Of a DNA stretch of 64,000 nt, positions 39,325 through 54,957 are shown one piece after another; position 1 is the first letter of the stretch, and every line of letters begins with the position of its first letter. Under the pieces are notes generated by a model. That model did no database searches, was not told the origin of the DNA, and was given only the letters and a program-made list of their open reading frames with translations. The stretch comes from Chloroflexota bacterium (GTDB taxonomy: Bacteria; Chloroflexota; UBA6077; FW602-bin22; JAMCWG01). The stretch covers positions 7,046 through 71,045 of the forward strand of contig JAMCWG010000005.1 in assembly GCA_023475235.1 (NCBI GenBank). The letters are read 5' to 3'. Position numbers and translations under genes: made by a program.

Positions 39325-40359
39325 GTGGAGGTACGCGGTGGAGGTGACAACTTGAGCAAACGGTCGACGGTATGCCTGATAGTCTTTCTTGTCGTGCTTG
39401 TAGCTGGTGCGGCTGCCTACGCCGCGGGGAACAGCCTCGGCTTGGGGCCGGCGCTGGCCCAGGGGCCAGATGAGTCGCCGCTGCTGGAGCTGGCCCAGCG
39501 CCTGCTGGCGCCGCCGCTCCCCGGCCCCTTCGGCCAGCCCCAGGCCATTCAACTCATGCCCGGCCAGTTGCCTGCCGGCCTGCCACTCGACGTGCCCGTG
39601 CCCCCGGGCGCGACCACTATCGGCAGCGCCGTCCACACTACGGGCGACCGGACCTCCAGCGTAGACGTGCTGTTCGATATGCCCGGAGATAGCGCGAGCC
39701 TGCTTGCCTTCTATCAGCAGGAGCTCCCGGCCAGAGGGTGGAATCCTGCCCCCGCTGCCACAGCCGCGCCCCACGGCTTCCAGTCGCCGCAGCCGGTGGT
39801 GAACCGCTCCTTCTGCCAGAGCCCGACAGGCCCGTGGCTGTCGGTGAGCATCTACCCCAAAGTCAGCGGGCCTAACGACGTCCGCCTCCACCTGGACCCC
39901 GTCAACCCCGGTCCCTGCGGCCAGCTCGGGCCGCTGCCCAGCAGGCTGCCGCCGGGTGCAGACCTGGTGCCGCCGCTGTACCCACCCAGCGGCGTGCCCC
40001 TGCAGACCTTTGGCAGCGGGATAGGGCCCGGCCGATGGGGGTCGGACGCCATAGCCGAAACGGGCCAGGACGTGGCCGCCCTGGAGGCCGGCTTCGCCCG
40101 CCAGCTCCAGGCTGCCGGATGGTCGCGGACCGCTGGCCGGGCCGACGGGCCGCTGGCATGGAGCACCTGGACAGTGCCCGGCGACGGAGGCTGGCAGGGG
40201 TTCCTCTACGTGCTACAGGAGCCGGGCACCAACCGGCGCTCGATGCACGTGCACGTGGAATCAGCCACCGCACCCTTCGGCCCGACCGGGCCGCTGCCGG
40301 CGCCGCAAGCGCCACCGGCGCCTCCGACCGCACCGCCGCCTGCCCCTGCAATGCCCTAA
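39325..40359 (+). CDS. Hypothetical secreted/membrane-anchored protein with Pro-rich tail
   Basis: GTG preceded by GGAGAGG. N-terminal anchor VCLIVFLVVLVAGAAAYAA. C-terminal PAPQAPPAPPTAPPPAPAMP. I recognise no family. Confidence 0.5.
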   Translation: MEVRGGGDNLSKRSTVCLIVFLVVLVAGAAAYAAGNSLGLGPALAQGPDESPLLELAQRLLAPPLPGPFGQPQAIQLMPGQLPAGLPLDVPVPPGATTIGSAVHTTGDRTSSVDVLFDMPGDSASLLAFYQQELPARGWNPAPAATAAPHGFQSPQPVVNRSFCQSPTGPWLSVSIYPKVSGPNDVRLHLDPVNPGPCGQLGPLPSRLPPGADLVPPLYPPSGVPLQTFGSGIGPGRWGSDAIAETGQDVAALEAGFARQLQAAGWSRTAGRADGPLAWSTWTVPGDGGWQGFLYVLQEPGTNRRSMHVHVESATAPFGPTGPLPAPQAPPAPPTAPPPAPAMP

Positions 40360-40502: not shown

Positions 40503-42599
40503 TCAAGGGCTGCAGGTGGAGACGTACAGGCTCCCCGAGTACGTGCTCACTGGCATATTCAGAGGCGGCTGGATGAAGAAGCTCATGGCGGCCGTCTGGC
40601 CTGGCACCAGGTACTTGGTGAAGCATTGGAGCTGGCCCGCCTTGAAGCCCAGTCCCTCGCCGAAGAATTGAGAACGGAAGTCTGTTACCCTTTGCACGCC
40701 CGATACGTCTACCATCGCGTTGAAAGTCAGGCCCGGCCGGAATGGCACGTTCCCGAGATTCCTGATGGTGGGCCGGCCGTCGTTGAGCACGAATAGATTG
40801 TCCCCAACGATGTTTGAGGACGCTGCTGGCAGCACCTTGCCGAAATCCACGGTATTGAAATCGAGATCGAACGCGATCAGGCCCAGGTAGACGAAGCCGG
40901 TAGATGTTCTGGATACTTCGACACCGCTCGCATCGGTAAGCACGACGTCGACGCTGTAGTTATCCGGCGGGGCGTAGCTTTCCAGCCCAAATGTCGCCCC
41001 ATACATTACGGACGTGCGCATCTTGAGCGAATCATTGATCGCGCTGGCCTGCGCTGCCGTCAGCAGCCCGGAGCCCACAGCACTATTCAATGCGCTATCA
41101 ATCACGCTGGTGTCGGCCACCGGCCTGAAGGAAAGCGTGGCGATCTTGGTCCCGGTCCCATACGCGACGCGCCCCGAAAGGGCAGGCATCGTATCCGTGA
41201 TGGCCGCGCTCCTTCCAGACATATCCAAAACTACCCAGGCGTTCGCCTCTCGGGTGGCGCCCATACGCGGCGTTATCTGAATGCCGGAGGTAACGGGATC
41301 GTCGTCCGGCGTTACCCAGGCTGATCCGATCTTCGGCGGTCCAGGAGTGAGCGTAACCGTTGGGGTCACATCCGGCGTGACGGTGCCCGTCGGGCTGGAC
41401 GTCGAGGTGGCAGTCGCTGTTTGGGTCGAAGTCGGCGTGGATGTGGGCGAGGCCGTGGCCGTCGTGCTGGGAGTGGGCGAGAATGTGCCCGTGGCGCTGG
41501 GCGTGGGCGAGCTCGTCGCCGTATCGGTAGGGCTGGGCGTTGGCGTCGACGTCGGGTTGGGCGTCGACGTGGGCGTCGGCGTGTCAGTTGGCAGCGGCGT
41601 CGGCGTATCGCTTGGGACCGCCGTTGGTGTGTCCGTAGGCAGGGGCGTCGGGGTTGACGTATCGGTTGGACCAGGCGTCGGCGTCGACGAGGGCGTGCCC
41701 GGCGGCGTTAGCGTCGACGTCGGCGTCGCGGTGGCAGTGCTCGTGGAGGTGGGCGCAGGCGGGAGGGTCGGCGTAGCGGAAGGCACCTGGGTGGCCGTCG
41801 AGGTGGGAGTTGCCACAACCGTGGCGGTCGCCGTGCTCGAAGGGACCGGGGTCGGCGTGGCCGTAGCCAGGCCGACAAGCCCGGACACGGGTGTGCTCGT
41901 CGGCGAGCCTGCCGGGTCGGGCGGTAGGGTAGCCGTCACGCTGATCTCCACCGTCGCGGTAGTTGTGCTCTCCGGGGAAGCCTGGGGCGTCGCTGTAGAG
42001 TCAGAAGGGAGCGTAGCCGTGGGCGTGAGGCTTGCACTGGCCGTCGCGCTCGGCGTCGGAGTCGCTCCCGCCCCGACCTTCGTGGGCGTCCCGGTAACGC
42101 AGGGGGTGGGCGTGGCGGCGGTCCCTTTGGGGACGGTCGCCGTAGGGCTGGGCGTGCTGCTGGAGCAGGGTGTGGGTGTGACGGTGGGAGTCGTTGTCAC
42201 GGTGGCTGCCGGAGTCGTCATCACGGTGGCCGTGGGAGTTGTGGCGGCCTTGACAGTACCGGTAGCGCTCGGCGTAGAGGCAGATACGACGCTGCCGGTG
42301 GGGATGCTTGTGGGGCTGCTCGCGGGCTTGGACGTGGCGGTGGCGGCGCGCGCCGCGGTCTTCGTGGCTGCGGGAGGAGAAGTCGCGCTCGGCGCGGTCG
42401 TAGCTGGGGCCGTGGCCGCCGCCTGCTGCCTGTCCGCCGCTAGGCGTGGCACCGCTGGCGTCGGGCTCCTCGCGACGGCGTCCGCCGCGGCAACGGCGGG
42501 GAAATCGGTGAGAGCCATCAGCGCGGGGAGGGCGGCTGCCGTCACGAATGCCAGCACGGTGGCCAAGCCAAGCAGCCAATTCACGCTTTTCCTATTCAT
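40503..42599 (-). CDS. Secreted surface protein: signal peptide, about 380-aa Thr/Pro/Ser/Ala-rich stalk, then C-terminal two-domain region paralogous to 44111..45115
   Basis: Signal peptide ending AVAAAD. Low-complexity PT stalk. The C-terminal about 270 aa aligns with the 334-aa protein (LDFNTVDFGKVLPA vs IDFTVVDYGSILPG; RPTIRNLGNVP vs KPTVWNRGNNP; FFIQPPLNMPVSTYSGSL vs FSIHAPSNAPQDAYTGTM). Confidence 0.7.
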   Translation of the reverse strand: MNRKSVNWLLGLATVLAFVTAAALPALMALTDFPAVAAADAVARSPTPAVPRLAADRQQAAATAPATTAPSATSPPAATKTAARAATATSKPASSPTSIPTGSVVSASTPSATGTVKAATTPTATVMTTPAATVTTTPTVTPTPCSSSTPSPTATVPKGTAATPTPCVTGTPTKVGAGATPTPSATASASLTPTATLPSDSTATPQASPESTTTATVEISVTATLPPDPAGSPTSTPVSGLVGLATATPTPVPSSTATATVVATPTSTATQVPSATPTLPPAPTSTSTATATPTSTLTPPGTPSSTPTPGPTDTSTPTPLPTDTPTAVPSDTPTPLPTDTPTPTSTPNPTSTPTPSPTDTATSSPTPSATGTFSPTPSTTATASPTSTPTSTQTATATSTSSPTGTVTPDVTPTVTLTPGPPKIGSAWVTPDDDPVTSGIQITPRMGATREANAWVVLDMSGRSAAITDTMPALSGRVAYGTGTKIATLSFRPVADTSVIDSALNSAVGSGLLTAAQASAINDSLKMRTSVMYGATFGLESYAPPDNYSVDVVLTDASGVEVSRTSTGFVYLGLIAFDLDFNTVDFGKVLPAASSNIVGDNLFVLNDGRPTIRNLGNVPFRPGLTFNAMVDVSGVQRVTDFRSQFFGEGLGFKAGQLQCFTKYLVPGQTAAMSFFIQPPLNMPVSTYSGSLYVSTCSP
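41327..42467 (-). repeat. Low-complexity Thr/Pro/Ser/Ala-coding region (degenerate short tandem repeats)
   Basis: The translation is almost only T, P, S, A, with reiterated units such as PTDTPTP, TSTPTP and TATATS. The antisense strand yields a spurious Gly/Val-rich ORF. Confidence 0.7.
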
Positions 42600-42684
42600 C
42601 CGATCTCCACAACTCTCTTCTTTGGCCGAAAGGCCCTCCCTTGTTCTCGGCTAGGCGAGCTGACGATACGCATCGTACTCCGCA

Positions 42685-43986
42685 TCAGGCCACGCGGCCG
42701 CTCTTTGCCCGCCGCCCCAGCATTAAGAAGACGCCGATGATGAGGGCCAGCACGGCGATCCCTTCCACCGAAGCCAGCATAATCCACGTGTTGCTGCTCG
42801 ATACTTCTTTTGCCTGGGTCGGTTGCAGGGCCTCCTCGACCGGCACCGCCTTGAAGGAGAGTTCCCTCGCGCTGGTCAGCTTGCCGCCGTAGTCCACCTG
42901 CGCACTTATGGAATAATTCCCGGGCTCCTCCAGCTTGAAGTAGGACACGAGCTGGCCCAACTGGTTCTTGAGGACCGATAGCCCGCGGCTCTCCAGGATG
43001 CCGACGAGGACGCCATCCCGCCGGATCTCGCCGACCAGGGTGGCCGGCGTCTCGATCTGCCCGGTGTTCGCGAAGGTGGCCGCGATTTTCAAGACGTTGC
43101 CCACCACCGGCATTCCCTCGCTGGTCAGCTCTCTAAGCTCGCCAGCCCTGGTCAGCGTGCCTATGGGTAGCAGCTTGAAATTGACGTCCTCCTGGGCGAT
43201 GACCTCCTCTGGCCCGTTGGACGAGCCGGCTATCGATACCTTCACCTTGGCCACGTAATCGCCGGCGCGCCAGCCCACGGTATCCGCGTCGATGTGAATC
43301 AGCTCCAACGAGTCCGGCTTGACTGTCGTGCTATTGTGCTCGTATTTCCCGGCAGGCAAGGTGCCCTCATATATTTCGGCTGTGAGCCTCGGCTTCACCG
43401 CTACGTTGCCCTTGTTGCTGACACCAGCGGTCAGCCGGACCGGATAGTTCACCTCTGTGTCGGGTGCGGTGATTCCCTCGGCGGTGGCCCTCAGAATCTG
43501 GTTCCCCGTAACCTCGACTCTCACTCTGGCCTGTGCCTGGATGGCGACCGTCTGTCCCTGTTGATCTTCCGTTTTGCCCGTCGCTTTGGGGAGCTCAACC
43601 GGGGCGGTCGTCACGAGGATCCTGGCCTCGTAGGTGCCATTTGCCGCTTGTTGGGGAATGTTGAAGCGGGCCACGAGCTGTTTATTTCCGCTGGGAGGGA
43701 CGGTCACGCGCTGGATAGGGGTAGGGGAATCGGGCTTCTCGTAGAAACGGATCCAGGCGCCCCCTTCCCCAGAGGTGCTCAACGTGTAACTGGTCTCCTG
43801 CGGCTCCGGGTTCAGTACCATCACAACTTTGTCGTACTCGGCGCCCCTCAGCGCTTGGTAGAGCTCGATGCTGGCCGGGGCCACCCCGACGCCCGCGGCC
43901 GATGCCGGCGCCACAAGGAGAAGGCCGTTTCCGAGAAGCAGGAAAATCACCATTGCAGTTATCGCCGTCAGTTTCCACACACCCAT
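42685..43986 (-). CDS. Cell-surface protein with signal peptide, tandem Ig-like (beta-sandwich) domains and C-terminal TM anchor
   Basis: Signal peptide LLVAPASAAG. Repeated strand patterns (VTVPPSGNKQLVARFNIPQQAANGTYEARILVTT). C-terminal anchor IAVLALIIGVFLMLGRRAKSGR. The architecture resembles COG1470/NEW3-type or DUF916/DUF3324-type proteins; this is an inference. Confidence 0.65.
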   Translation of the reverse strand: MGVWKLTAITAMVIFLLLGNGLLLVAPASAAGVGVAPASIELYQALRGAEYDKVVMVLNPEPQETSYTLSTSGEGGAWIRFYEKPDSPTPIQRVTVPPSGNKQLVARFNIPQQAANGTYEARILVTTAPVELPKATGKTEDQQGQTVAIQAQARVRVEVTGNQILRATAEGITAPDTEVNYPVRLTAGVSNKGNVAVKPRLTAEIYEGTLPAGKYEHNSTTVKPDSLELIHIDADTVGWRAGDYVAKVKVSIAGSSNGPEEVIAQEDVNFKLLPIGTLTRAGELRELTSEGMPVVGNVLKIAATFANTGQIETPATLVGEIRRDGVLVGILESRGLSVLKNQLGQLVSYFKLEEPGNYSISAQVDYGGKLTSARELSFKAVPVEEALQPTQAKEVSSSNTWIMLASVEGIAVLALIIGVFLMLGRRAKSGRVA

Positions 43987-44110
43987 GTCGCGACATCCTC
44001 CCTGTCAAAGTATCTTGAAGCCGGAGGCTATGCGCGCCATCCAGCGCGCATAGCCTTCTCACCTACTGGCAACTCATTGCCTAAATGCTCTATCCTGCCC
44101 CGGTCGGTGA

Positions 44111-45115
44111 CTATGGATCCTCTACAATCGTAATGGTCATCGTGCCCGTGTACGCATCCTGGGGTGCGTTGGAGGGCGCATGAATCGAGAAGTCGATCTG
44201 GGTCGGATTGCACGGTTGGAGCTTGCCATCCGGCGTAACTACCTGGCTGGCGTAGTAGGTCTTCGGAGTGGGGCTGAGACTCGACAGCATCACGTCAAAT
44301 ACAGTGATCACCTTAGTGTACGTGATGCCTGTCATCGGGCTGCTGACGATGTTCAGCGCCCCCGGGTTGTTGCCCCTGTTCCATACCGTCGGCTTGTCGA
44401 CGGTGGTGAAATCGCCGTCGCCTGACTTCCACTTGTCCACGCCGGGCAGGATAGAGCCGTAGTCTACCACAGTGAAGTCGATGGCCAGCGACACGATGCT
44501 ATCGATCATGATGTAGTTTGTCTTCGAGCCGGTCGCGCCCTGGTTGTTGGTTACGGTGGCGACTATCTTGTACTTGCCGGAGAGCTGGTGGACGTCATAG
44601 TCGAAGCACCCTTTGTACGCCAGCGCCTCGAACTTCAAGATCTCCTCGTCGATCTCGGTCTTCTGGGCGGACGTCATCTGCCCGCTGTTCACCGCGGCCG
44701 TCTTGGCGGCCTCGATTGCCACCGTGTCGGTCACATTGACCATGTGTACCTGGATCTTGAACTTGGTCGGAGGATCCTCACCAGGCGTGGCCGGCTCCCA
44801 AACGTCGAAGAACACGCCGGAGATGTTGGCGATACCCATCGTATCGGTGACCACAGCCCAGACGCAGACATCGGCGGGGTTGGGATAGGCTGGGGGAACG
44901 AAGACCGGCGGGATACCGACGCCTGGCAGGCTCATGTCATGCGAAGGCAGCTCCCATTTCGCCTTAATGCCGGGCTTCGCCCCGTCTCCGGTTATCTGCG
45001 CCGTAGTGGTTACCTTCTGGGTGGGCACAGGGGGGTCGGCTGCTGCCGGTAGCGATGTCAGCAACATAGCCAGCACCGCCAGCAGCGCGAACGGTATCAA
45101 TAACCGCTTTTTCAC
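44111..45115 (-). CDS. Secreted beta-rich protein, paralog of the C-terminal region of 40503..42599
   Basis: GTG preceded by GGAGAG. Signal peptide LLTSLPAAAD. Paralogy blocks as listed for 40503..42599. Confidence 0.7.
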   Translation of the reverse strand: MKKRLLIPFALLAVLAMLLTSLPAAADPPVPTQKVTTTAQITGDGAKPGIKAKWELPSHDMSLPGVGIPPVFVPPAYPNPADVCVWAVVTDTMGIANISGVFFDVWEPATPGEDPPTKFKIQVHMVNVTDTVAIEAAKTAAVNSGQMTSAQKTEIDEEILKFEALAYKGCFDYDVHQLSGKYKIVATVTNNQGATGSKTNYIMIDSIVSLAIDFTVVDYGSILPGVDKWKSGDGDFTTVDKPTVWNRGNNPGALNIVSSPMTGITYTKVITVFDVMLSSLSPTPKTYYASQVVTPDGKLQPCNPTQIDFSIHAPSNAPQDAYTGTMTITIVEDP

Positions 45116-46207: not shown

Positions 46208-46380
46208 TAGGGCCTTTTCAAAGTCCGCTGATCCGGCTGCTCGTGGGGTTTACCTCACCTCCGGCCTTCGGCCACCCCCTCTCCGCGCGCGGAGAGGGGG
46301 CCAGGGGGTGAGGTAAACTGCCGTTGGCAAGGCAACCCAAGCGCTGTCTGATTCCCGGCTGGCGACTTTGAAAGGCCCTG
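46208..46380 (+). mobile_element. MITE-like hairpin element, copy B, with 9-bp target-site duplication
   Basis: TAGGGCCTTTTCAAAGTC ... GACTTTGAAAGGCCCTG termini. Flanked by TTCTCAAAC at 46199-46207 and 46381-46389. Confidence 0.7.
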
Positions 46381-46556: not shown

Positions 46557-46925
46557 TCAAACCCGGCAAATGCACTGGTTGACCAGCCTGAGCAGCTCGT
46601 CCAGGTCGAAGGGCTTGGCCAGGACGGCGTAGGGGTCGATCTCTGCGGCGCAAAAGGCAGGATTGCTCGTGGCCGTGATGACGATGATGGGCGCATGTGG
46701 CCCCGGCAGCCGTTTGTACACGCGCGAGAATTCCCATCCATCCATAACAGGCGTGCGAAGGTCGAGCAGAATCAGGTCGGGCTGCCACTCCTCGATAATA
46801 TCGAGTGCGGCTTTGCCGTGCACGGCAGTCATGACCTCGTAGCCCTCGTCGGCCAAGGCCAACTCGACGAACTCTCGGATGCTCTCATCGTCATCAACAA
46901 CCAGTACATGCATTGGTGAATTCAC
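46557..46925 (-). CDS. Single-domain response regulator (CheY-like receiver)
   Basis: VLVVDDDESIREFV ... DLILLDLRTPVMDG ... IIVITAT. The start overlaps the kinase stop (TAGTG). Confidence 0.9.
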   Translation of the reverse strand: MNSPMHVLVVDDDESIREFVELALADEGYEVMTAVHGKAALDIIEEWQPDLILLDLRTPVMDGWEFSRVYKRLPGPHAPIIVITATSNPAFCAAEIDPYAVLAKPFDLDELLRLVNQCICRV

Positions 46926-49900
46926 TAGTCTCCCCTTTCGTCTCCCCTCGCGTGGCCCTCTCCTTGGGCCATTGTGTGGCCTCCCCCCTCAGCGCCGGCA
47001 GTGTCGTCGAGCGCGTCATCGGCCGAGCAGCCGGCAGATTCATATCCCACCGGCAGATTGACGACGAAGCGCGTCCCGCCTTCGATAGGAAACTCAGCCT
47101 CAATGCTGCCGCCGTGGAGATTCACGATCTGACGGCTGATGAACAGCCCCAAGCCCATGCCTCCCAGGCGATGGGCCGCGTGCGCCTGGTAGAAGCGGTC
47201 AAAGATGCTTTTCCGATGCTCTGGGGGAATGCCAATGCCGTGGTCGGTCACCGACATGCGCAGGGTTTCAAGGCTTGACGCCGCCAATTCGACATCGATC
47301 GGCCCGCCATTCGGACTGTACCGGATAGCATTGTCTATCAGATTGGTTACCACTTGCTCGATGCGCAACGGGTCCACAAATGCCGGCAGGGAGGACGGAG
47401 CACGCACACCGATGTCGTGCACATTGGTGGTTGCCTGCGCTGCGGCTGCCACCCCCTTGACCAGGGCCACCAGATCGGTATCCTGCCGGTCAAGAGACAG
47501 CTTCCCCGCCTCGATACGCGAGACATCGAGCAGGTGGTATGTCAGACGAGTCAGCTTGTCCGACTGCTTGTCGATGGTGTCCAGCGCCCGCCGCATCCGA
47601 TGCGGGTCGACTACGCCGCAGTTGCCCATCTGATGTATCATAAGCTGGGCGAAGCCCCGCAGGCTGGTCACCGGCGTCTTGAGCTCGTGGGCCGCCACGG
47701 AGAGGAATTCGTCACGGGCTCGAATCGCCTCCTGGGCTTGCCGGTAAAGCCGGGCATTGTCGATCGCGGTCCCACAGCGGCGGGCCACGTCCTCCATTAT
47801 GGCCAGATCAGGTGCCCCGTATCGGCGCCCGGAAGACATCGACGCGATGGAGATGATTCCAACCGTATCTCCCCGGACGGTAATGGGCACGACGATGTAC
47901 GAGATGTGCCCCATTTCACGGACTGCCCGAAGGTGGTCTGCATCCTCGATTGCGGCCTCCAAGGCTGAATCGGAGACCTCCGTGACGAGGACCGGCTGGC
48001 CGGTGCGCAGCGCTTTCGCATACGAGCTTTCTCCGCTCTCGTCCAGGCAGTACCGACAATAGGTCTCGCGCGCCAGTTCCTCCACCGAGCTATCATGAAT
48101 GACCGAGGCAACCAGGCGCGGCGGGCCGTTCTCCGGGACGATGTCGACGGCGCACCAGTCGGCGATGGTGGGCACGGCGAGATGGGCCACACTGGCGAGT
48201 ATGGTCTCGTCATCCAGCGAGCTGGAGAGTTGCTTGCTCGCTTCCGCCAGGAAGCGCTGCGCATCCTCTGCCCGTTTGCGCTCGGTGACATCGCGAGAGA
48301 TGCCGCCGAGCATAAATCCTTGCTCGGTCCTGACCGGAAAGGTCATCGACTGCAGCACGCGCCGCTCGCCATCCGAACGCTCAAGCTCTCGCTCCACGAG
48401 CTGGCCCAGCCACGGTCCTCGTCCGGTCCTCAACGCTTCCAAGATCTCGCCTTTGATTCGCTCGTACAATTCCGGTCGTTTCTTGTCGCCGGAAGCTACC
48501 TGGAATTGCACATCCCAGAGCGGCCGGCCCAGTACCTCGGCCTTTCTTAACCCGGAGAGCTGCTCCTGGCCCTCGTTCCATTCCACGATCAGGCCCTGCT
48601 CATCCACCAGGACGATCCCATCCTCTGACCGCTCGACGATACTCCGGAACTTTTGCTCCGACTGCCGCAGCGCTTCCTCGGCACGCTTGCGCTCGGTGAT
48701 GTCCGTCAGCAGCGACACCACGCCGGCGATGGTACCGTCGGCGTCGCGGAGCGGCGCGGCGCTAATGGCTATGATCAGCCGGGTCCCGTCGGGATGCTCG
48801 AAGGCCTGCTCGAAGCCGTAAATCGGCTTGCCCGTTCTTAAGACCCGGACGAAGGGATGGTCACTCTCTACCAGCGGCTTGCCTTCCACGGTGGTGTTTT
48901 TCCAGGTGACGTTGCTGTGGGTCCTTTTGACGATCTCAGCACGCGGAAGGCCAAGAATCCTTTCGGCGGCAGCGTTCACCAGCGTTATCTGCCCATCGCG
49001 GCTGAAGGTGACCACGCCGTCGGTCATCGTCTCGAACATGCTGGTCAGTTGCTCTTCGCCCTCGCGCAGGGCCCTCTCCGCACGCTGGAGCTCGGTGATG
49101 TATCCCTCACGCTGGTCCTCGCTGGCCTGAATTTCCGAGGCCATCCGGTTGAAAGCATCGGCCAGTTCCTCCAGCTCGGTTGGCCCGGTAACATCCACTT
49201 TGCCGGCGAGCTCGCCCTGCCCGATAGCCAGAGCATGCCGTCGAAGACGCCTCATCGGGACGGTGAGATTTCGGCTTATGATCATCGCGGCGATTCCGCC
49301 CAGGACCGCGGTGAGAATGATCAGGCCGACGTCTCTCCACAGGTCTTGCAGTACCGGACCGACAGCCTCCTGCTCCGGCCGGCTGGCTATCGCCACCCAG
49401 CCGATGGAGCGGATGGGCACTTGCCCGGCAATCTGCTTTCGCTCGTCAGGCATCAAGACGAGGGCCCCGCTGTACTCCTGGCCGGCCAGGGCCTGAGCGA
49501 TCCGCGGCTCAGCTTCAAGCACATTGCGTTTTTCCCATGGCAGGTCGACCTCGGGGTAGCGGTACACAAGCTGGCCTTGCCGATCGATGATGGAAAGGGA
49601 GCCCTGCCCGGCCCTCGCCAGGCCAAGCACCTCGGCTAGATGGGTTGGCTCCACTTCAGCAAGTAACACGCCCTGCAGCAAGCCTTTTTCATCACGCATA
49701 CCGGTGGCGATATGGAACCTTGGCTCGCCGGCCGACCTCGACAGCGATAGATCGCTCACGACCCAGTCCTGTCCATCGAGGATTCCCTTGAGATAGGGGC
49801 GGTCGGTGATCTTGGTGCCGGTGACAATGGAGCCGGTAGACGCGATGACGCGGCCATCAGAGTCTGCCCAGCTATAGCTGAGGATCGAGGGATACCCGCG

Positions 49901-50272
49901 TGCGCTTTCGGCGAGGAGCCGGTTCATCTCTGCGGGCGAAGGCGGGTGCGGCGAAGTAAACGCCAGGCCGATAGCCAACTGCTGATGCAAGACATCTCGA
50001 ATATACGCATCGAAGGTTGCGGCCACCGCCCGGGCTAGCTCGACGTTCTCCCTGTGCTCTGTAGCGAGCCTTGTATTGAAGGAGCTGTAGTAGATAAGCC
50101 CCTGAACGAGCAGGACCGGCCCTAGCAGAACGAGCAGCAGGAGGAACAGCGTTCCCTGAATACTGTCGAAGAAGAACTGACCAACTCTGCCCCCTGGTGC
50201 TCCAGGCAGTCTGTTGTCGTGCGGCGTAGTGGGTAGATTGTGCTGGCCGATCTGAGGCGCTTCACTTCCCAT
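46925..50272 (-). CDS. Multidomain sensor histidine kinase (TM, Cache-like, TM, HAMP, PAS, PAS, GAF, HisKA, HATPase)
   Basis: H-box FLSVAAHELKTPVTSL, N-box VVTNLIDNAIRYS, G-boxes DHGIGI / GMGLGLFISRQIV. Two PAS-like blocks and one GAF-like block. The ATG at 50272 is preceded by GGTGAGGA. Confidence 0.9.
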   Translation of the reverse strand: MGSEAPQIGQHNLPTTPHDNRLPGAPGGRVGQFFFDSIQGTLFLLLLVLLGPVLLVQGLIYYSSFNTRLATEHRENVELARAVAATFDAYIRDVLHQQLAIGLAFTSPHPPSPAEMNRLLAESARGYPSILSYSWADSDGRVIASTGSIVTGTKITDRPYLKGILDGQDWVVSDLSLSRSAGEPRFHIATGMRDEKGLLQGVLLAEVEPTHLAEVLGLARAGQGSLSIIDRQGQLVYRYPEVDLPWEKRNVLEAEPRIAQALAGQEYSGALVLMPDERKQIAGQVPIRSIGWVAIASRPEQEAVGPVLQDLWRDVGLIILTAVLGGIAAMIISRNLTVPMRRLRRHALAIGQGELAGKVDVTGPTELEELADAFNRMASEIQASEDQREGYITELQRAERALREGEEQLTSMFETMTDGVVTFSRDGQITLVNAAAERILGLPRAEIVKRTHSNVTWKNTTVEGKPLVESDHPFVRVLRTGKPIYGFEQAFEHPDGTRLIIAISAAPLRDADGTIAGVVSLLTDITERKRAEEALRQSEQKFRSIVERSEDGIVLVDEQGLIVEWNEGQEQLSGLRKAEVLGRPLWDVQFQVASGDKKRPELYERIKGEILEALRTGRGPWLGQLVERELERSDGERRVLQSMTFPVRTEQGFMLGGISRDVTERKRAEDAQRFLAEASKQLSSSLDDETILASVAHLAVPTIADWCAVDIVPENGPPRLVASVIHDSSVEELARETYCRYCLDESGESSYAKALRTGQPVLVTEVSDSALEAAIEDADHLRAVREMGHISYIVVPITVRGDTVGIISIASMSSGRRYGAPDLAIMEDVARRCGTAIDNARLYRQAQEAIRARDEFLSVAAHELKTPVTSLRGFAQLMIHQMGNCGVVDPHRMRRALDTIDKQSDKLTRLTYHLLDVSRIEAGKLSLDRQDTDLVALVKGVAAAAQATTNVHDIGVRAPSSLPAFVDPLRIEQVVTNLIDNAIRYSPNGGPIDVELAASSLETLRMSVTDHGIGIPPEHRKSIFDRFYQAHAAHRLGGMGLGLFISRQIVNLHGGSIEAEFPIEGGTRFVVNLPVGYESAGCSADDALDDTAGAEGGGHTMAQGEGHARGDERGD

Positions 50273-50662
50273 TATAGTCCTCACCTGAATGGCCCTTCGG
50301 GAGCGTCACAGGAGTCGTTGGCGCACGGCAATCCAGGTGTCTATGTAGTCTTTGTGCCTCTGTGAGCTCTACTTATCGGCCTAGTAGAGCCAGCGAGCAA
50401 TTAGCAGCGCGCCAAACTAGTATCGGACTTATGCGCCGTGTAGTCAAGGCCTATGCAATTCGCTTATTGGCGACCCAGCGGTCCGCGCCGCGGTGAAATG
50501 CTATTGGGTGCCCTGGCTGGCCCGACTCCCGGCCACCGGGAAGCCCGCCGGGCCAGCTATACGCCGGGTAATCTGCTTTCGCAACGGGCTGATGGCGTCT
50601 TTTTTGCCGCCTAGACTATAGTAGCCGCGCGAGCCGTTGTCAAGAACAAACACGGCCCGGCA

Positions 50663-52419: not shown

Positions 52420-52685
52420 AGGGCCATCCCATCTAGTACGCGTGTCTGCCTCGACAAGGACAGGGTGATCAACGGGTGCCCCGCAGACGGGAACATAGCA
52501 GGATATCGGATGATTGAGCCGTCGAGGGCTCGAGGGCGGCTGGCAATTGGTGAGGGCATTGGTCAGGGAAGCCGCGATCTGGGTGAGGATTCGCCTGCGC
52601 ACGAGCAGTCTCAACAGAGGTGAGAGGCAGATGTGCTAAGGTGGCAGGCACAAGCCGATGGTGAACACGATATGAGGGAGAGAGT

Positions 52686-53843
52686 ATGAGAGCAAAGGTG
52701 GCGCTGGCCGATTGCGCGGACTACGACCTGGACCGCGTCTATGCCGCAGTCAAATGTTCCCTGGAAGAGATCGGGGGAATGGAGGCATTCGTCCGGCCCG
52801 GCCAGCGGGTCTTGCTCCAGGTCAACCTTATCTCGCCGCGCCCCGCAGAGGACGCGGTGTGCACCCATCCCAGCATCGTGAGAGCAGCGTGCCGGCTGGT
52901 CGGCGAGGCCGGCGGCATACCGTCGGTCGGGGGCAGCGCGGGCGGCTCGGCCTATCATCGTACCCGCCGCGTCCTGCAGGTATCGGGGATCGCCGCCGCG
53001 GCGGCGGAGGAAGGCGTGGAGGTCCTCGACTACGACGAGATGGATGGACAGGACGTCTCGTCGGACGGCGCGGTCATGCAGAGCATACATATCGCCAAGC
53101 CCGTCCTGGATACCGACGTGCTCATCACGCTGCCCAAGATGAAGACCCACAGCGTGACGCTCTTGACCGGCGCCGTCAAGAATCACCTGGGCACACTGCC
53201 GGGGGCACGCAAGGCCGAGCTGCACCGCCGCTTTCCCGCTCCTGAGCAATTCAGCCAGGCGCTGGTCGACATCTATGCCGCCGCGACGCCCCATCTGACG
53301 ATCATGGACGCCGTCGACGGCATGGACGGCAACGGGCCGACGGCCGGGCGCGTTCGCCACGTGGGGCTGGTGGCGTCGAGCGCCGACAGCGTGGCACTGG
53401 ACACCGTGATGTGCGCCGTTTGCGGCATAGACCCCAAGTGGGTCTTCACCGGCATCGCCGCACACAAGCGAGGGCTGGGCGTGGGTTCGCTCGAGGAGAT
53501 CGAGGTGGTAGGTACACCGTTGGATGCGGCCAGAGGCCGCGTCCGCCCCTTCGCCTACCCGATGACCTACCGCTTGTTTGCCCACTCGTGGGTCCCAGAA
53601 GGAGGACGGCGCATCGCTGGGCAATACCTCGGCGGGTCTCCCTCGCCAATCGTCATCTCCAGTAAATGCAACGGCTGTCAGACGTGCATCCGGAGCTGCC
53701 CGGCGCAGGCGATGGCTATGGTGAATAACAAGGCCAGCATCGAGCAGAAGAAGTGCATCAGTTGCTTCTGCTGCCACGAGCTGTGCACCCAGCAGGCCAT
53801 CGGCATCAAGGTGCCTTTTCTCTGGCACTTATTCCGGGCCTGA
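52686..53843 (+). CDS. DUF362-domain protein with C-terminal 2x[4Fe-4S] ferredoxin domain
   Basis: The N-terminal and central region matches my memory of DUF362 (KVALADCADYD ... VNLISP ... THP ... LPKMKTH). C-terminal CNGCQTCIRSCP and CISCFCCHELC. Confidence 0.8.
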   Translation: MRAKVALADCADYDLDRVYAAVKCSLEEIGGMEAFVRPGQRVLLQVNLISPRPAEDAVCTHPSIVRAACRLVGEAGGIPSVGGSAGGSAYHRTRRVLQVSGIAAAAAEEGVEVLDYDEMDGQDVSSDGAVMQSIHIAKPVLDTDVLITLPKMKTHSVTLLTGAVKNHLGTLPGARKAELHRRFPAPEQFSQALVDIYAAATPHLTIMDAVDGMDGNGPTAGRVRHVGLVASSADSVALDTVMCAVCGIDPKWVFTGIAAHKRGLGVGSLEEIEVVGTPLDAARGRVRPFAYPMTYRLFAHSWVPEGGRRIAGQYLGGSPSPIVISSKCNGCQTCIRSCPAQAMAMVNNKASIEQKKCISCFCCHELCTQQAIGIKVPFLWHLFRA

Positions 53844-53883: not shown

Positions 53884-54957
53884 CTACGTGCCGATCAGGA
53901 GAATCTCCTCGGAATCCCCGTTGGTGGACAGCGCATACTTGTACTGCCCGAGGCGCTCCACCCGCACTTTGCCCCTGAACTGGCATAGCAGGGACACGAG
54001 CTCCGCTTCGGCGGGAATGCCATCGCTTCGATAGGACACCACGATGATGCTTTTCCGGTATCGCTCAAACAAGCGACCGAAGGCGGCGTAAATCTGGCGC
54101 TTGCCGGCCCACTCGTTTGGCTGCGGCAGCAGGCGTCGGTGCTTCGACCGATGATCGATGCGACTCGCCCACTCGTCGTACATCGTGAGGCCTTCTAGGA
54201 AGTGATAGAACGCCAGGTAATCGACGGCCGTCCCCCGCCGTGAGATGTAGGGCGGATCGACGTACACCAGATCGTAGTCGCCAGGGACGGCAGCAGCATC
54301 GCAACACAAGGCGCGATTGCTCTCCCCGTTGTCGAAGACGGCCCGATTGGCCTCCTGCACGAAGGTGCGGAACCACGCCTCGAAGGGCCGCTCCCAGCTC
54401 GCCTTGTTCCCGAATGACCGCTCGACTTCGGCGGTGCGGATGTACAAGTTCTTCCTGTGGAACAGGTTGTACGGCCGCTTGATGATGCACGCCTGGCATA
54501 GAGCGAAGAAGGCCAGGGCATGCTTGTATGGGTCGGCGAGGTGGCGGATATTGGGGGTGGTCTGATCGACCCAGGCGTTCTCCTCATCGGTAAAGTAGAT
54601 GCCGGGAAAGGTATCCTGGACGAAGCGTGGGTAGGCTATCCCCGGGTGCCGCTGGAGGAGCCAGTCGACTTCGTCGGGGGACAAGCGCGTGGCACTGTTC
54701 TCGACGAGGGCCAGACCGGCGTAGTAGTTGAAACGGAGCAGGTCATTGTAGGTCACCCGCTTGCCTTCCCGCTTCAGACGATGGGCCACCGCGCCGGTGC
54801 CGCCGAACGCGTCCAGGCAGGTAGTGAAATTGAGGCCGGCGATCTGCTGCCAGATCCAGTCGGCCAGCTTCGCCTTGCTGCCCTGGTAGCGGGTGGAGGG
54901 AAACGCGGGAGCCGGCCCGGTGGCCAGCGGAGCCCGGCTGGCAGCGTCGCTACTCAT
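53884..54957 (-). CDS. D12-class (Dam-like) N6-adenine DNA methyltransferase
   Basis: RYQGSKAKLADWI (motif X-like), DAFGGTGAV (FxGxG, motif I), VYVDPPY (motif IV). Confidence 0.85.
   Translation of the reverse strand: MSSDAASRAPLATGPAPAFPSTRYQGSKAKLADWIWQQIAGLNFTTCLDAFGGTGAVAHRLKREGKRVTYNDLLRFNYYAGLALVENSATRLSPDEVDWLLQRHPGIAYPRFVQDTFPGIYFTDEENAWVDQTTPNIRHLADPYKHALAFFALCQACIIKRPYNLFHRKNLYIRTAEVERSFGNKASWERPFEAWFRTFVQEANRAVFDNGESNRALCCDAAAVPGDYDLVYVDPPYISRRGTAVDYLAFYHFLEGLTMYDEWASRIDHRSKHRRLLPQPNEWAGKRQIYAAFGRLFERYRKSIIVVSYRSDGIPAEAELVSLLCQFRGKVRVERLGQYKYALSTNGDSEEILLIGT

Follow-up and report, generated by a model that had tools for sequence, protein, structure and literature searches.

The window analysed here, a stretch of 64,000 nucleotides from a Chloroflexota bacterium (contig JAMCWG010000005.1), contains on its minus strand three co-directional ORFs, named here A, B and A', whose limits agree with those of the original prediction:

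44111-45115, minus strand: gene A, ORF of 334 aa with a GTG start
42685-43986, minus strand: gene B, ORF of 433 aa
40503-42599, minus strand: gene A', 698 aa, running from a signal or anchor at the N-terminus through a Thr/Pro stalk to the A module at the C-terminus

As had been predicted, each gene has its own purine-rich SD sequence, located 6-8 nt 5' of the start, and each of the three products has an export signal at its N-terminus, these signal peptides being called from hydropathy and AXA sites only. The intergenic regions are short (124 bp between A and B, 85 bp between B and A'), and no terminator-like sites were found within the three-gene module. None of the three proteins reaches a Pfam or NCBIfam threshold, in accordance with the earlier view that they could be placed in none of the families it listed. 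A gene for an SBP_bac_5 solute-binding protein is found near the module in the window and in the closest relative, locus L001.

The non-coding region preceding gene A was initially described as 1.1 kb long, but it measures ~1.44 kb, from the stop of the upstream response-regulator gene at 46557 to the start of A at 45115. No convincing promoter or terminator signal exceeding shuffles was found in this gap, and an Rfam search of the window returned no family. Only the ~150 bp next to gene A are conserved with L001:

45124-45271, minus strand: segment adjoining gene A, kept in L001 (77% over 84 nt and 92% over 24 nt)

This segment likely corresponds to the promoter and 5' leader of gene A. Genes with a REC domain occur within ~2 kb upstream in 7 loci. 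A conserved dedicated regulator was considered and rejected, since the REC domain of the window shares just 26-30% identity with the REC-only proteins found in L002 and L003.

Protein A is composed of a signal peptide (residues ~1-26, PAAA|D), an N-terminal segment (~27-47) and the A module, which comprises two beta-sandwich domains, D1 (~48-205, with a two-helix insert at 131-160) and D2 (~206-334). Its AF2 model has a pLDDT of 91.3, and both domains are modelled as a monomer at pLDDT >90. The segment ~27-47 is conserved but modelled with lower confidence: T37 is nearly invariant in the family alignment of 28 sequences, while the model shows no secondary structure there (pLDDT 55-72). Searches of Pfam and NCBIfam gave nothing for A or A', and the A-family profile had no significant match among PDB sequences. 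The Foldseek search of the A model against PDB and BFVD retrieved only generic tandem-Ig matches with TM of 0.2-0.3 and no specific relative.

The same module is found at the C-terminal end of A', preceded by a long stalk:

40518-41369, minus strand: A module (D1 and D2) of A', residues ~411-694, aligned to A-family HMM positions 31-315 (E 9e-45; BLASTP E 1e-16)
41355-42479, minus strand: stalk of A', residues 41-415 (375 residues), low complexity, T+P+A+S 79%

The paralogy between A and the C-terminus of A', claimed before from pairs of shared motifs, is clear in the BLASTP alignment (24% identity over 211 aa) as well as in the HMM match, and all the motif pairs quoted are present. The stalk, for which 380 aa had been given, is made of T (31%), P (19%), A (15%) and S (14%), and short imperfect tandem repeats are observed in its DNA.

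Protein B has the organization of a type-I membrane protein: behind the signal peptide (ASA|AG) come three Ig-like domains (D1 28-160, D2 167-273 and D3 282-381), then a linker, the TM helix and a basic tail. The AF2 model (pLDDT 82) contains three beta-sandwich domains and a C-terminal helix, so that the repeated beta-sandwich units, C-terminal anchor and positive tail described for the middle gene are borne out by structure prediction and hydropathy. D2 and D3 are related to each other with a 97.8% probability in hhalign, and the single C-terminal TM helix followed by a basic tail is kept across the B family. Two features of B are relevant below:

42703-42789, minus strand: TM helix of B, residues 400-428, followed by the basic tail RRAKSGRVA (hydropathy and AF2 model)
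43549-43596, minus strand: loop in D1 of B, residues 131-146, Gly/Glu/Lys/Thr-rich, pLDDT <50, of variable length in the family

When 177,635 PDB sequences were searched with the B-family profile, the sole significant match was the Enterococcus faecium EfmWxLIP1 (9i25_C, 9i1y_A; E 1.2e-4). The match spans the D1/D2 boundary of B, and the matched EfmWxLIP1 fragment corresponds to Pfam WxLIP_PGBD plus WxLIP_HBD; the loop 131-146 falls in the part of B that aligns with the end of the PGBD. In hhalign, the B family aligned to seven annotated WxLIP proteins with a probability of 95.1% (E 3e-8), the single B domains reaching only 23-37%; the controls gave 2.9% (reversed) and 1.8% (A family). In Foldseek, WxLIP (9i1y/9i25) is the first bacterial match of B (E 1e-9), and the best matches overall are HYDIN-type tandem Ig arrays. 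The identity between B and WxLIP is 18%. Both proteins also share their overall build, in which a signal peptide and Ig domains are followed by a linker, a TM helix and a basic tail. Neither DUF916 (PF06030, WxLIP_PGBD) nor DUF3324 (PF11797, WxLIP_HBD) was detected in B of the window at E<=1 or in 17 family members at E<=0.01. The only Pfam match of the window B is FixG_C, below the cut-off (E 0.0087), and within the 17 family members CARDB was found in 6 (best E 3.8e-6), FixG_C in 7 and HYDIN_VesB_CFA65-like_Ig in one. A search of a word-indexed database with the B-alignment profile did not reach beyond the single-sequence search. Taken as profiles and folds, these data indicate that B is homologous to WxLIP at the superfamily level, remotely.

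The same relationship is not found between the A module and the WxL domain. No Pfam match to the WxL domain (dual Trp-x-Leu motif, PF13731) exists in A or A', and the domains of the A module aligned to seven WxL proteins with <1% probability in hhalign; local and global runs, for single domains as for whole proteins, were negative, and the A module is not a WxL domain. The whole A protein gave 24-43% for a short signal-peptide/N-terminal-strand stretch only (24.5% over 16 columns). The 50 best Foldseek matches of the A model do not include the WxL chain 9i25_A. A small WxL protein searched by phmmer against PDB had no match either, and 9i25_A was found, weakly, by a WxL profile only. Thus, the analogy to WxL/DUF916-DUF3324 loci raised in the original prediction stands for the Ig-like protein and for the layout of the locus, but not for the partner domain.

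The order of the genes is conserved in related genomes, which were scanned with narrower alignments than the full family alignments. In every locus with enough downstream DNA (~20 loci), A is directly followed by B, and this adjacency spans Anaerolineae, Dehalococcoidia and Chloroflexia with different flanking genes. In about two thirds of the evaluable loci, the gene after B encodes a large protein with the A module at its C-terminus (the window, L002, L007, L008, L013, L014, L015 and L034). In L012 this place is taken by a diverged A-like gene, and in L004, L006, L029 and L036 the third gene is missing or different. The families therefore do co-occur outside the window, and the three-gene order expected from the original prediction is largely kept. 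The named hosts are almost all Chloroflexota, and a B-like protein was also found in a Thermoplasmatales MAG.

The A-module family comprises ~1,300 clusters at 50% identity. Among 13 long representatives, 10 end no more than 29 residues past the module, and the N-terminal parts of long members vary (BNR, vWA-like, jelly-roll-like, or no Pfam match). The cargo on A-module clusters includes protease, sialidase-like, vWA, PKD and beta-helix domains. With its C-terminal position and variable N-terminal cargo, the A module appears to behave as a docking module.

We suggest, with slightly better than even confidence, that A, B and A' form a non-covalent cell-surface display complex organized like the WxL clusters of Bacilli. 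B would be exported and remain tethered to the cytoplasmic membrane through its C-terminal helix, with the three Ig-like domains outside; D1-D2 would derive from a common stock with the DUF916-DUF3324 pair of WxLIP, and D3 would be a duplicate of D2. A would be secreted as a protein made only of the A module, and A' would bear the same module behind its 375-residue stalk. In this proposal, A and A' would both be bound by B through their A modules and retained at the cell surface, with a function in display or adhesion. The binding may occur by addition of a beta-strand from the disordered D1 loop of B to the partner, and residues 131-146 are the candidate strand. This mode is predicted for WxLIP, whose disordered hairpin would insert into WxL (PMC10599100). 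The stalk of A' would project outward, and in relatives its place would be taken by enzyme or adhesin domains. Alternatively, the N-terminus of A', which is long and hydrophobic, could remain uncleaved as an anchor, and this would reverse the proposed topology.

The conserved N-terminal segment of A around T37, without modelled secondary structure, would also suit a different reading, in which A and A' are subunits of a fibre, pilus or sheath polymerising by donor-strand exchange and B is a membrane-tethered chaperone or platform. The archaic Csu pili chaperone-subunit complex (6fjy_B) is among the Foldseek matches of A, but this match is generic (TM 0.29-0.33) and occurs amid many tandem-Ig matches. 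Likewise, three genes with TasA/SipW-type N-termini lie just downstream of the module in L002, but no usher, sortase or SipW-like gene was found among the called genes adjoining the module in the loci examined. The PapD-like chaperones, TasA and SCPU/DUF4402 pilins proposed as candidate relatives have no counterpart in Pfam searches. PapD-like chaperone, TasA/Peptidase_M73 and SCPU/DUF4402 families gave no match for A, B or A'; this extends, for PapD and usher, to the window neighbours and the called genes of related loci, for Peptidase_M73 to the 28 members of the A family, and for SCPU/DUF4402 to E<=1 in the window and E<=0.1 in family members. Both A domains are complete in the monomer model, and the enzyme-like cargo of long family members is more in keeping with a docking module than with a subunit of a polymer. 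The assembly of a fibre or sheath, as originally envisaged, is left with nothing pointing to polymerisation, and we regard it as unlikely.

An S-layer-like envelope, with B as a membrane-anchored stalk comparable to archaeal S-layer glycoproteins and A/A' forming or decorating the lattice, seems slightly less probable again. The plan of B (an Ig array plus a C-terminal TM) and the S-layer protein 7ptp_A at rank 31 in Foldseek agree with it, but that match is generic and weaker than WxLIP, to which the sequence profile of B is specific. The Thr/Pro-rich stalk could carry glycosylation, and the B-like protein of the Thermoplasmatales MAG also speaks for this reading. On the other hand, the family is patchy and the content of the loci variable, unlike a core envelope component, and no evidence of lattice-forming contacts was found. 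The least probable reading, that these are functionally independent secreted Ig-like proteins (e.g. accessories of polymer degradation or uptake) with a coincidental likeness to WxL loci, could draw on the generic nature of all Foldseek matches of A and on the SBP_bac_5 gene nearby in the window and L001, but the transporter gene is not kept in other loci, the A module recurs downstream of B, and A and B are strictly adjacent across three classes despite differing flanks.

To our knowledge, the way in which proteins are attached to the surface of Chloroflexota (Anaerolineae, Dehalococcoidia, Chloroflexia) is largely unknown, and the envelope architecture of the phylum is debated; peptidoglycan, the ligand of the shared domain in WxL clusters, is lacking in some Dehalococcoidia, a point against the WxL-like reading. 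The locus described here offers a concrete candidate, a membrane-anchored WxLIP homologue with two partners sharing a new docking module. More tentatively, the A module and the WxLIP-like B may constitute a widespread surface-holding system of Chloroflexota, and possibly of some archaea, related to the Firmicute WxL system as its evolutionary sister, with another beta-sandwich module in the position of WxL. If this were true, the ~1,300 A-module clusters would represent the displayed surface proteome of a phylum with a poorly understood envelope. The WxL systems of Bacilli have been studied for adhesion and virulence, and the kinship of B extends the WxLIP superfamily far beyond Bacilli; the locus suggests that a plan in three parts (small partner, anchor, and large partner with cargo) predates the WxL domain or is more general than it. 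In practice, a model of the unannotated A-module family would annotate many hypothetical proteins of metagenomes, and the family could serve as a surface-display scaffold in Chloroflexota.

Several known systems resemble parts of this locus. Chaperone-usher and Csu pili and the TasA/camelysin fibres share with it secreted beta-sandwich subunits with a conserved N-terminal strand together with an Ig-like accessory protein. The module differs from them in having no usher, no PapD-like or Peptidase_M73 match and no SipW. The accessory protein B is TM-anchored instead of periplasmic, and the A subunits model as complete folds. Compared with TasA/camelysin, the signal peptides of the module end in AXA, and TasA-like N-termini are seen only in the unrelated downstream genes of L002. 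The archaeal S-layer glycoproteins (e.g. 7ptp) likewise combine an Ig array and a Thr-rich region with a membrane anchor at the C-terminus, but beyond the weak generic Foldseek match they show no sequence relation, and there is no evidence of a lattice. Some members of the B family match Ig-like families of the CARDB / NEW3 / FixG_C / HYDIN-ASH type, a group that takes in COG1470-like membrane proteins. These are generic folds with no implied function, the window B lies below their thresholds, and CARDB/HYDIN-type families account neither for the conserved partner genes nor for the specific WxLIP match in the PDB.

The closest comparison is with the WxL clusters of Lactobacillales and Bacillales, which contain a small WxL protein, WxLIP (DUF916-DUF3324-TM) and a large WxL protein, and include the csc clusters of L. 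plantarum (PMC10599100, PMC9772566). Literature searches returned no paper describing WxL-like loci in Chloroflexi and none about the 9i25 structure. The differences are considerable. The partner in our locus is a module of ~290 residues with two beta-sandwiches and without W-x-L motifs, B contains a third Ig domain, missing from WxLIP, through duplication of the HBD-like domain, an LPXTG protein is absent, and the cargo in this window is a Thr/Pro stalk alone. The present hosts belong to the Chloroflexota, while Firmicutes account for >91% of WxL sequences (PMC9772566). On the other hand, three secreted proteins are encoded in both, and the order A, B, A' reproduces that of small partner, Ig/TM protein and large partner, annotated WxL loci being ordered as small WxL, DUF916/DUF3324 and large WxL. 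The shared domain makes up the entire small protein and is C-terminal in the large one (in the window and 8 related loci), as the WxL domain always is in large WxL proteins (PMC9772566), and the large proteins bear variable N-terminal cargo in both. The Ig protein of WxL clusters, which likewise ends in a TM helix and a basic tail, is a remote homologue of B. Considering gene order, domain position and the kinship of the anchor together, the trio probably encodes a cell-surface complex with the layout of WxL clusters, found in an unrelated phylum and using a previously undescribed partner domain instead of WxL.

The three co-directional minus-strand genes, referred to as A, B and A', form a real, conserved module. 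Their ORFs agree exactly with the coordinates of the original prediction:

44111-45115, minus strand, gene A, ORF of 334 aa
42685-43986, minus strand, gene B, ORF of 433 aa
40503-42599, minus strand, gene A', ORF of 698 aa

As had been claimed, each gene is preceded by its own SD. The intergenic spacings are 124 and 85 bp, and no terminator-like sites were found within the module. The proposed paralogy between A and the C-terminus of A' is supported by BLASTP (E 1e-16) and by the family HMM, whose match in A' (E 9e-45) spans almost the entire A module, the two-beta-sandwich unit common to both proteins. Residues 41-415 of A', its stalk, consist of Thr, Pro, Ala and Ser in 79% of positions. A long antisense ORF (41281-42654, plus strand) was rejected as a gene, being a mirror of the low-complexity coding region of A'. 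Such Gly/Val-rich long ORFs opposite Thr/Pro-rich coding sequence are found both here and in the related locus L001 (10522-11187, minus strand), where the gene caller of the public assembly took antisense ORFs in place of the true third gene, in what looks like an annotation artefact. This third gene, cut by the contig end, encodes a signal peptide, a T/P-rich region and a cohesin-like stretch.

Every ORF in 30 related loci was searched with the A- and B-family HMMs. The predicted gene order recurs in them: a small A is immediately followed by B in every locus with sufficient downstream sequence (about 20), and a large protein with a C-terminal A module comes after B in the window and seven others (L002, L007, L008, L013, L014, L015 and L034). 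A diverged A-like gene occupies the third position in L012, and the third gene is different or missing in L004, L006, L029 and L036. Where hosts are named, they are MAGs of Anaerolineae, Dehalococcoidia, Tepidiformaceae and Chloroflexia, and the flanking genes vary from locus to locus. Directly downstream of the trio, L002 (12412-15471) contains three paralogous genes (321, 311 and 346 aa) whose N-termini resemble TasA/SipW-type signals (AxFxDIExSQxNxFxTGSLDLKV), with a weak Peptidase_M73 match (E 0.008) as their sole Pfam support; in this genome, the module may have a further surface-fibre-like gene set as its neighbour. In a Thermoplasmatales MAG contig (L016:22-4351), a partial B-like gene encodes a C-terminal Ig domain and a TM helix that continue into a long tail rich in Lys; next comes a 1,157-aa coiled-coil protein, with no A-family gene downstream. 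The gene may be a relative of B in an archaeon, or the contig may have been binned wrongly.

No Pfam or NCBIfam family was found at threshold for A, B or A'. The AlphaFold2 model of protein A is confident (pLDDT 91.3, from a 28-sequence alignment). Behind the signal peptide it shows a conserved N-terminal segment, modelled less confidently, and then two beta-sandwich domains, the first with a two-helix insertion. Foldseek of this model against PDB and viral models returned generic tandem-Ig matches only (TM 0.2-0.3), and the A-family profile had no match among PDB sequences. In the family alignment (A1), T37, K53, E55, D91, K120, Q177, D213, N246, N249 and C302 are near- or fully invariant, and a His just before Q177 is largely conserved. 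These polar residues, which are scattered across the A module, could mark the binding site of a ligand, or else an intramolecular cross-link as in domains of Gram-positive adhesins.

The A-module profile recovers 1,302 cluster representatives (50% identity) at E<=1e-3, of which 491 also pass E<=1e-30. We surveyed the size and cargo of the 144 top representatives, excluding the A-family proteins from the first search: 131 are small and 13 long. The long members carry BNR, vWA-like or jelly-roll-like parts, NosD/PKD/SLT/C13 combinations, or nothing recognisable, and in 10 of the 13 the protein ends within 29 residues of the A module. A module that serves for docking or anchoring would be expected to show this pattern of varied cargo and mostly C-terminal position. 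The three exceptions are P0073, with a caspase-like Peptidase_C14 domain C-terminal to the module, P0133 (1,681 aa), which has partial A modules together with a NosD beta-helix and PKD, SLT and C13 peptidase domains, and P0153 (1,594 aa), with a long uncharacterised region after the module.

Protein B (model pLDDT 82) is predicted to comprise three Ig-like domains, a linker, a TM helix (400-428) and a basic tail, with a disordered loop (residues 131-146) in the first domain. Domains 2 and 3 arose by tandem duplication (hhalign 97.8%). Among 177,635 distinct PDB sequences, the only significant match of the B-family profile (E 1.2e-4) is EfmWxLIP1 of Enterococcus faecium (9i25_C, 9i1y_A), which aligns across the boundary of domains 1 and 2 through a fragment corresponding to Pfam WxLIP_PGBD and WxLIP_HBD. 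For comparison, plasmid records supplied seven proteins annotated as DUF916/DUF3324 and seven small WxL proteins. The hhalign probability between the B family and WxLIP is 95.1% (E 3e-8), against 2.9% in the reversed-sequence control and 1.8% for the A family. In Foldseek, WxLIP is the first bacterial match of B (E 1e-9), ranked behind HYDIN-type Ig arrays. The identity is 18% and single domains reach only 23-37% hhalign probability; the relationship is probably one of remote, superfamily-level homology, rather than Pfam membership. In hhalign, the second A-module domain (residues 200-334 of A) also aligns with domain 1 of B (residues 28-162) at 84% probability and E 7.6e-6 over 74 columns; partner module and anchor protein may have inherited an Ig-like domain from a common ancestor.

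The non-coding region upstream of gene A measures about 1.44 kb instead of the 1.1 kb first estimated, and only its last ~150 bp are conserved with the nearest relative, L001. Its non-conserved portion contains nested inverted repeats (46211-46378), with 15-nt arms at 46211-46225 and 46364-46378 around 46248-46262 and 46304-46318, and possibly represents a small element of palindromic or MITE-like type. Response-regulator genes lie up to about 2 kb upstream of the module in seven loci. In the window, a REC-only regulator is encoded upstream together with a large dCache-HAMP-PAS-GAF histidine kinase (46557-50284). REC-only genes directly precede gene A in L002 (6159-6557) and L003 (7331-7720), their products being 51% identical to each other and seemingly without the phospho-acceptor Asp (DLIVMAE). 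A single orthologous regulator was rejected, since the window REC is only 26-30% identical to these two. On the other side of the trio, a convergent ORF (39325-40359, plus strand) encodes a 344-aa protein that is rich in Pro, starts with a hydrophobic segment and lacks a Pfam match. It may be an additional envelope protein; no other locus showed it beside the module. Elsewhere in the window are a D12-class N6-adenine DNA methyltransferase gene (53884-54957, minus strand) and an adjoining 405-aa ORF (52611-53828) lacking a Pfam match.

The best-supported reading of the trio is a WxL-like surface complex. B would be anchored in the membrane and would hold the A module of both A and A', possibly by strand insertion between B and its partner, with the stalk or cargo presumably directed outward at the cell surface. 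A donor-strand fibre has less support, as does an S-layer-like envelope. The same applies to three unrelated secreted proteins. The anatomy of the genes, the paralogy, the conserved order, the link from B to WxLIP and the pattern of cargo are shown by the analysis; binding of A by B, insertion of a strand and location at the surface are inferences.

Typical WxL clusters encode three proteins: a small WxL protein consisting of the WxL domain alone, a WxLIP ending in a C-terminal TM helix, and a large WxL protein with variable domains first and the WxL domain always C-terminal (PMC10599100, PMC9772566). In an AlphaFold prediction, a disordered WxLIP hairpin enters WxL as a strand (PMC10599100). 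The annotated WxL loci that we examined have the order small WxL, WxLIP, large protein. The A module was rejected as a WxL domain, with no Pfam match and hhalign below 1% over the domains; the only resemblance is short, non-significant and at the N-terminal strand, and the WxL chain 9i25_A is absent from the top 50 structural matches of the A model. Our literature search found no paper on such loci in Chloroflexi. The trio has the same gene order and logic as WxL clusters, the A module standing where WxL would be. It is best read as a novel version of the WxL/WxLIP type, in a different phylum and with an undescribed partner domain family.
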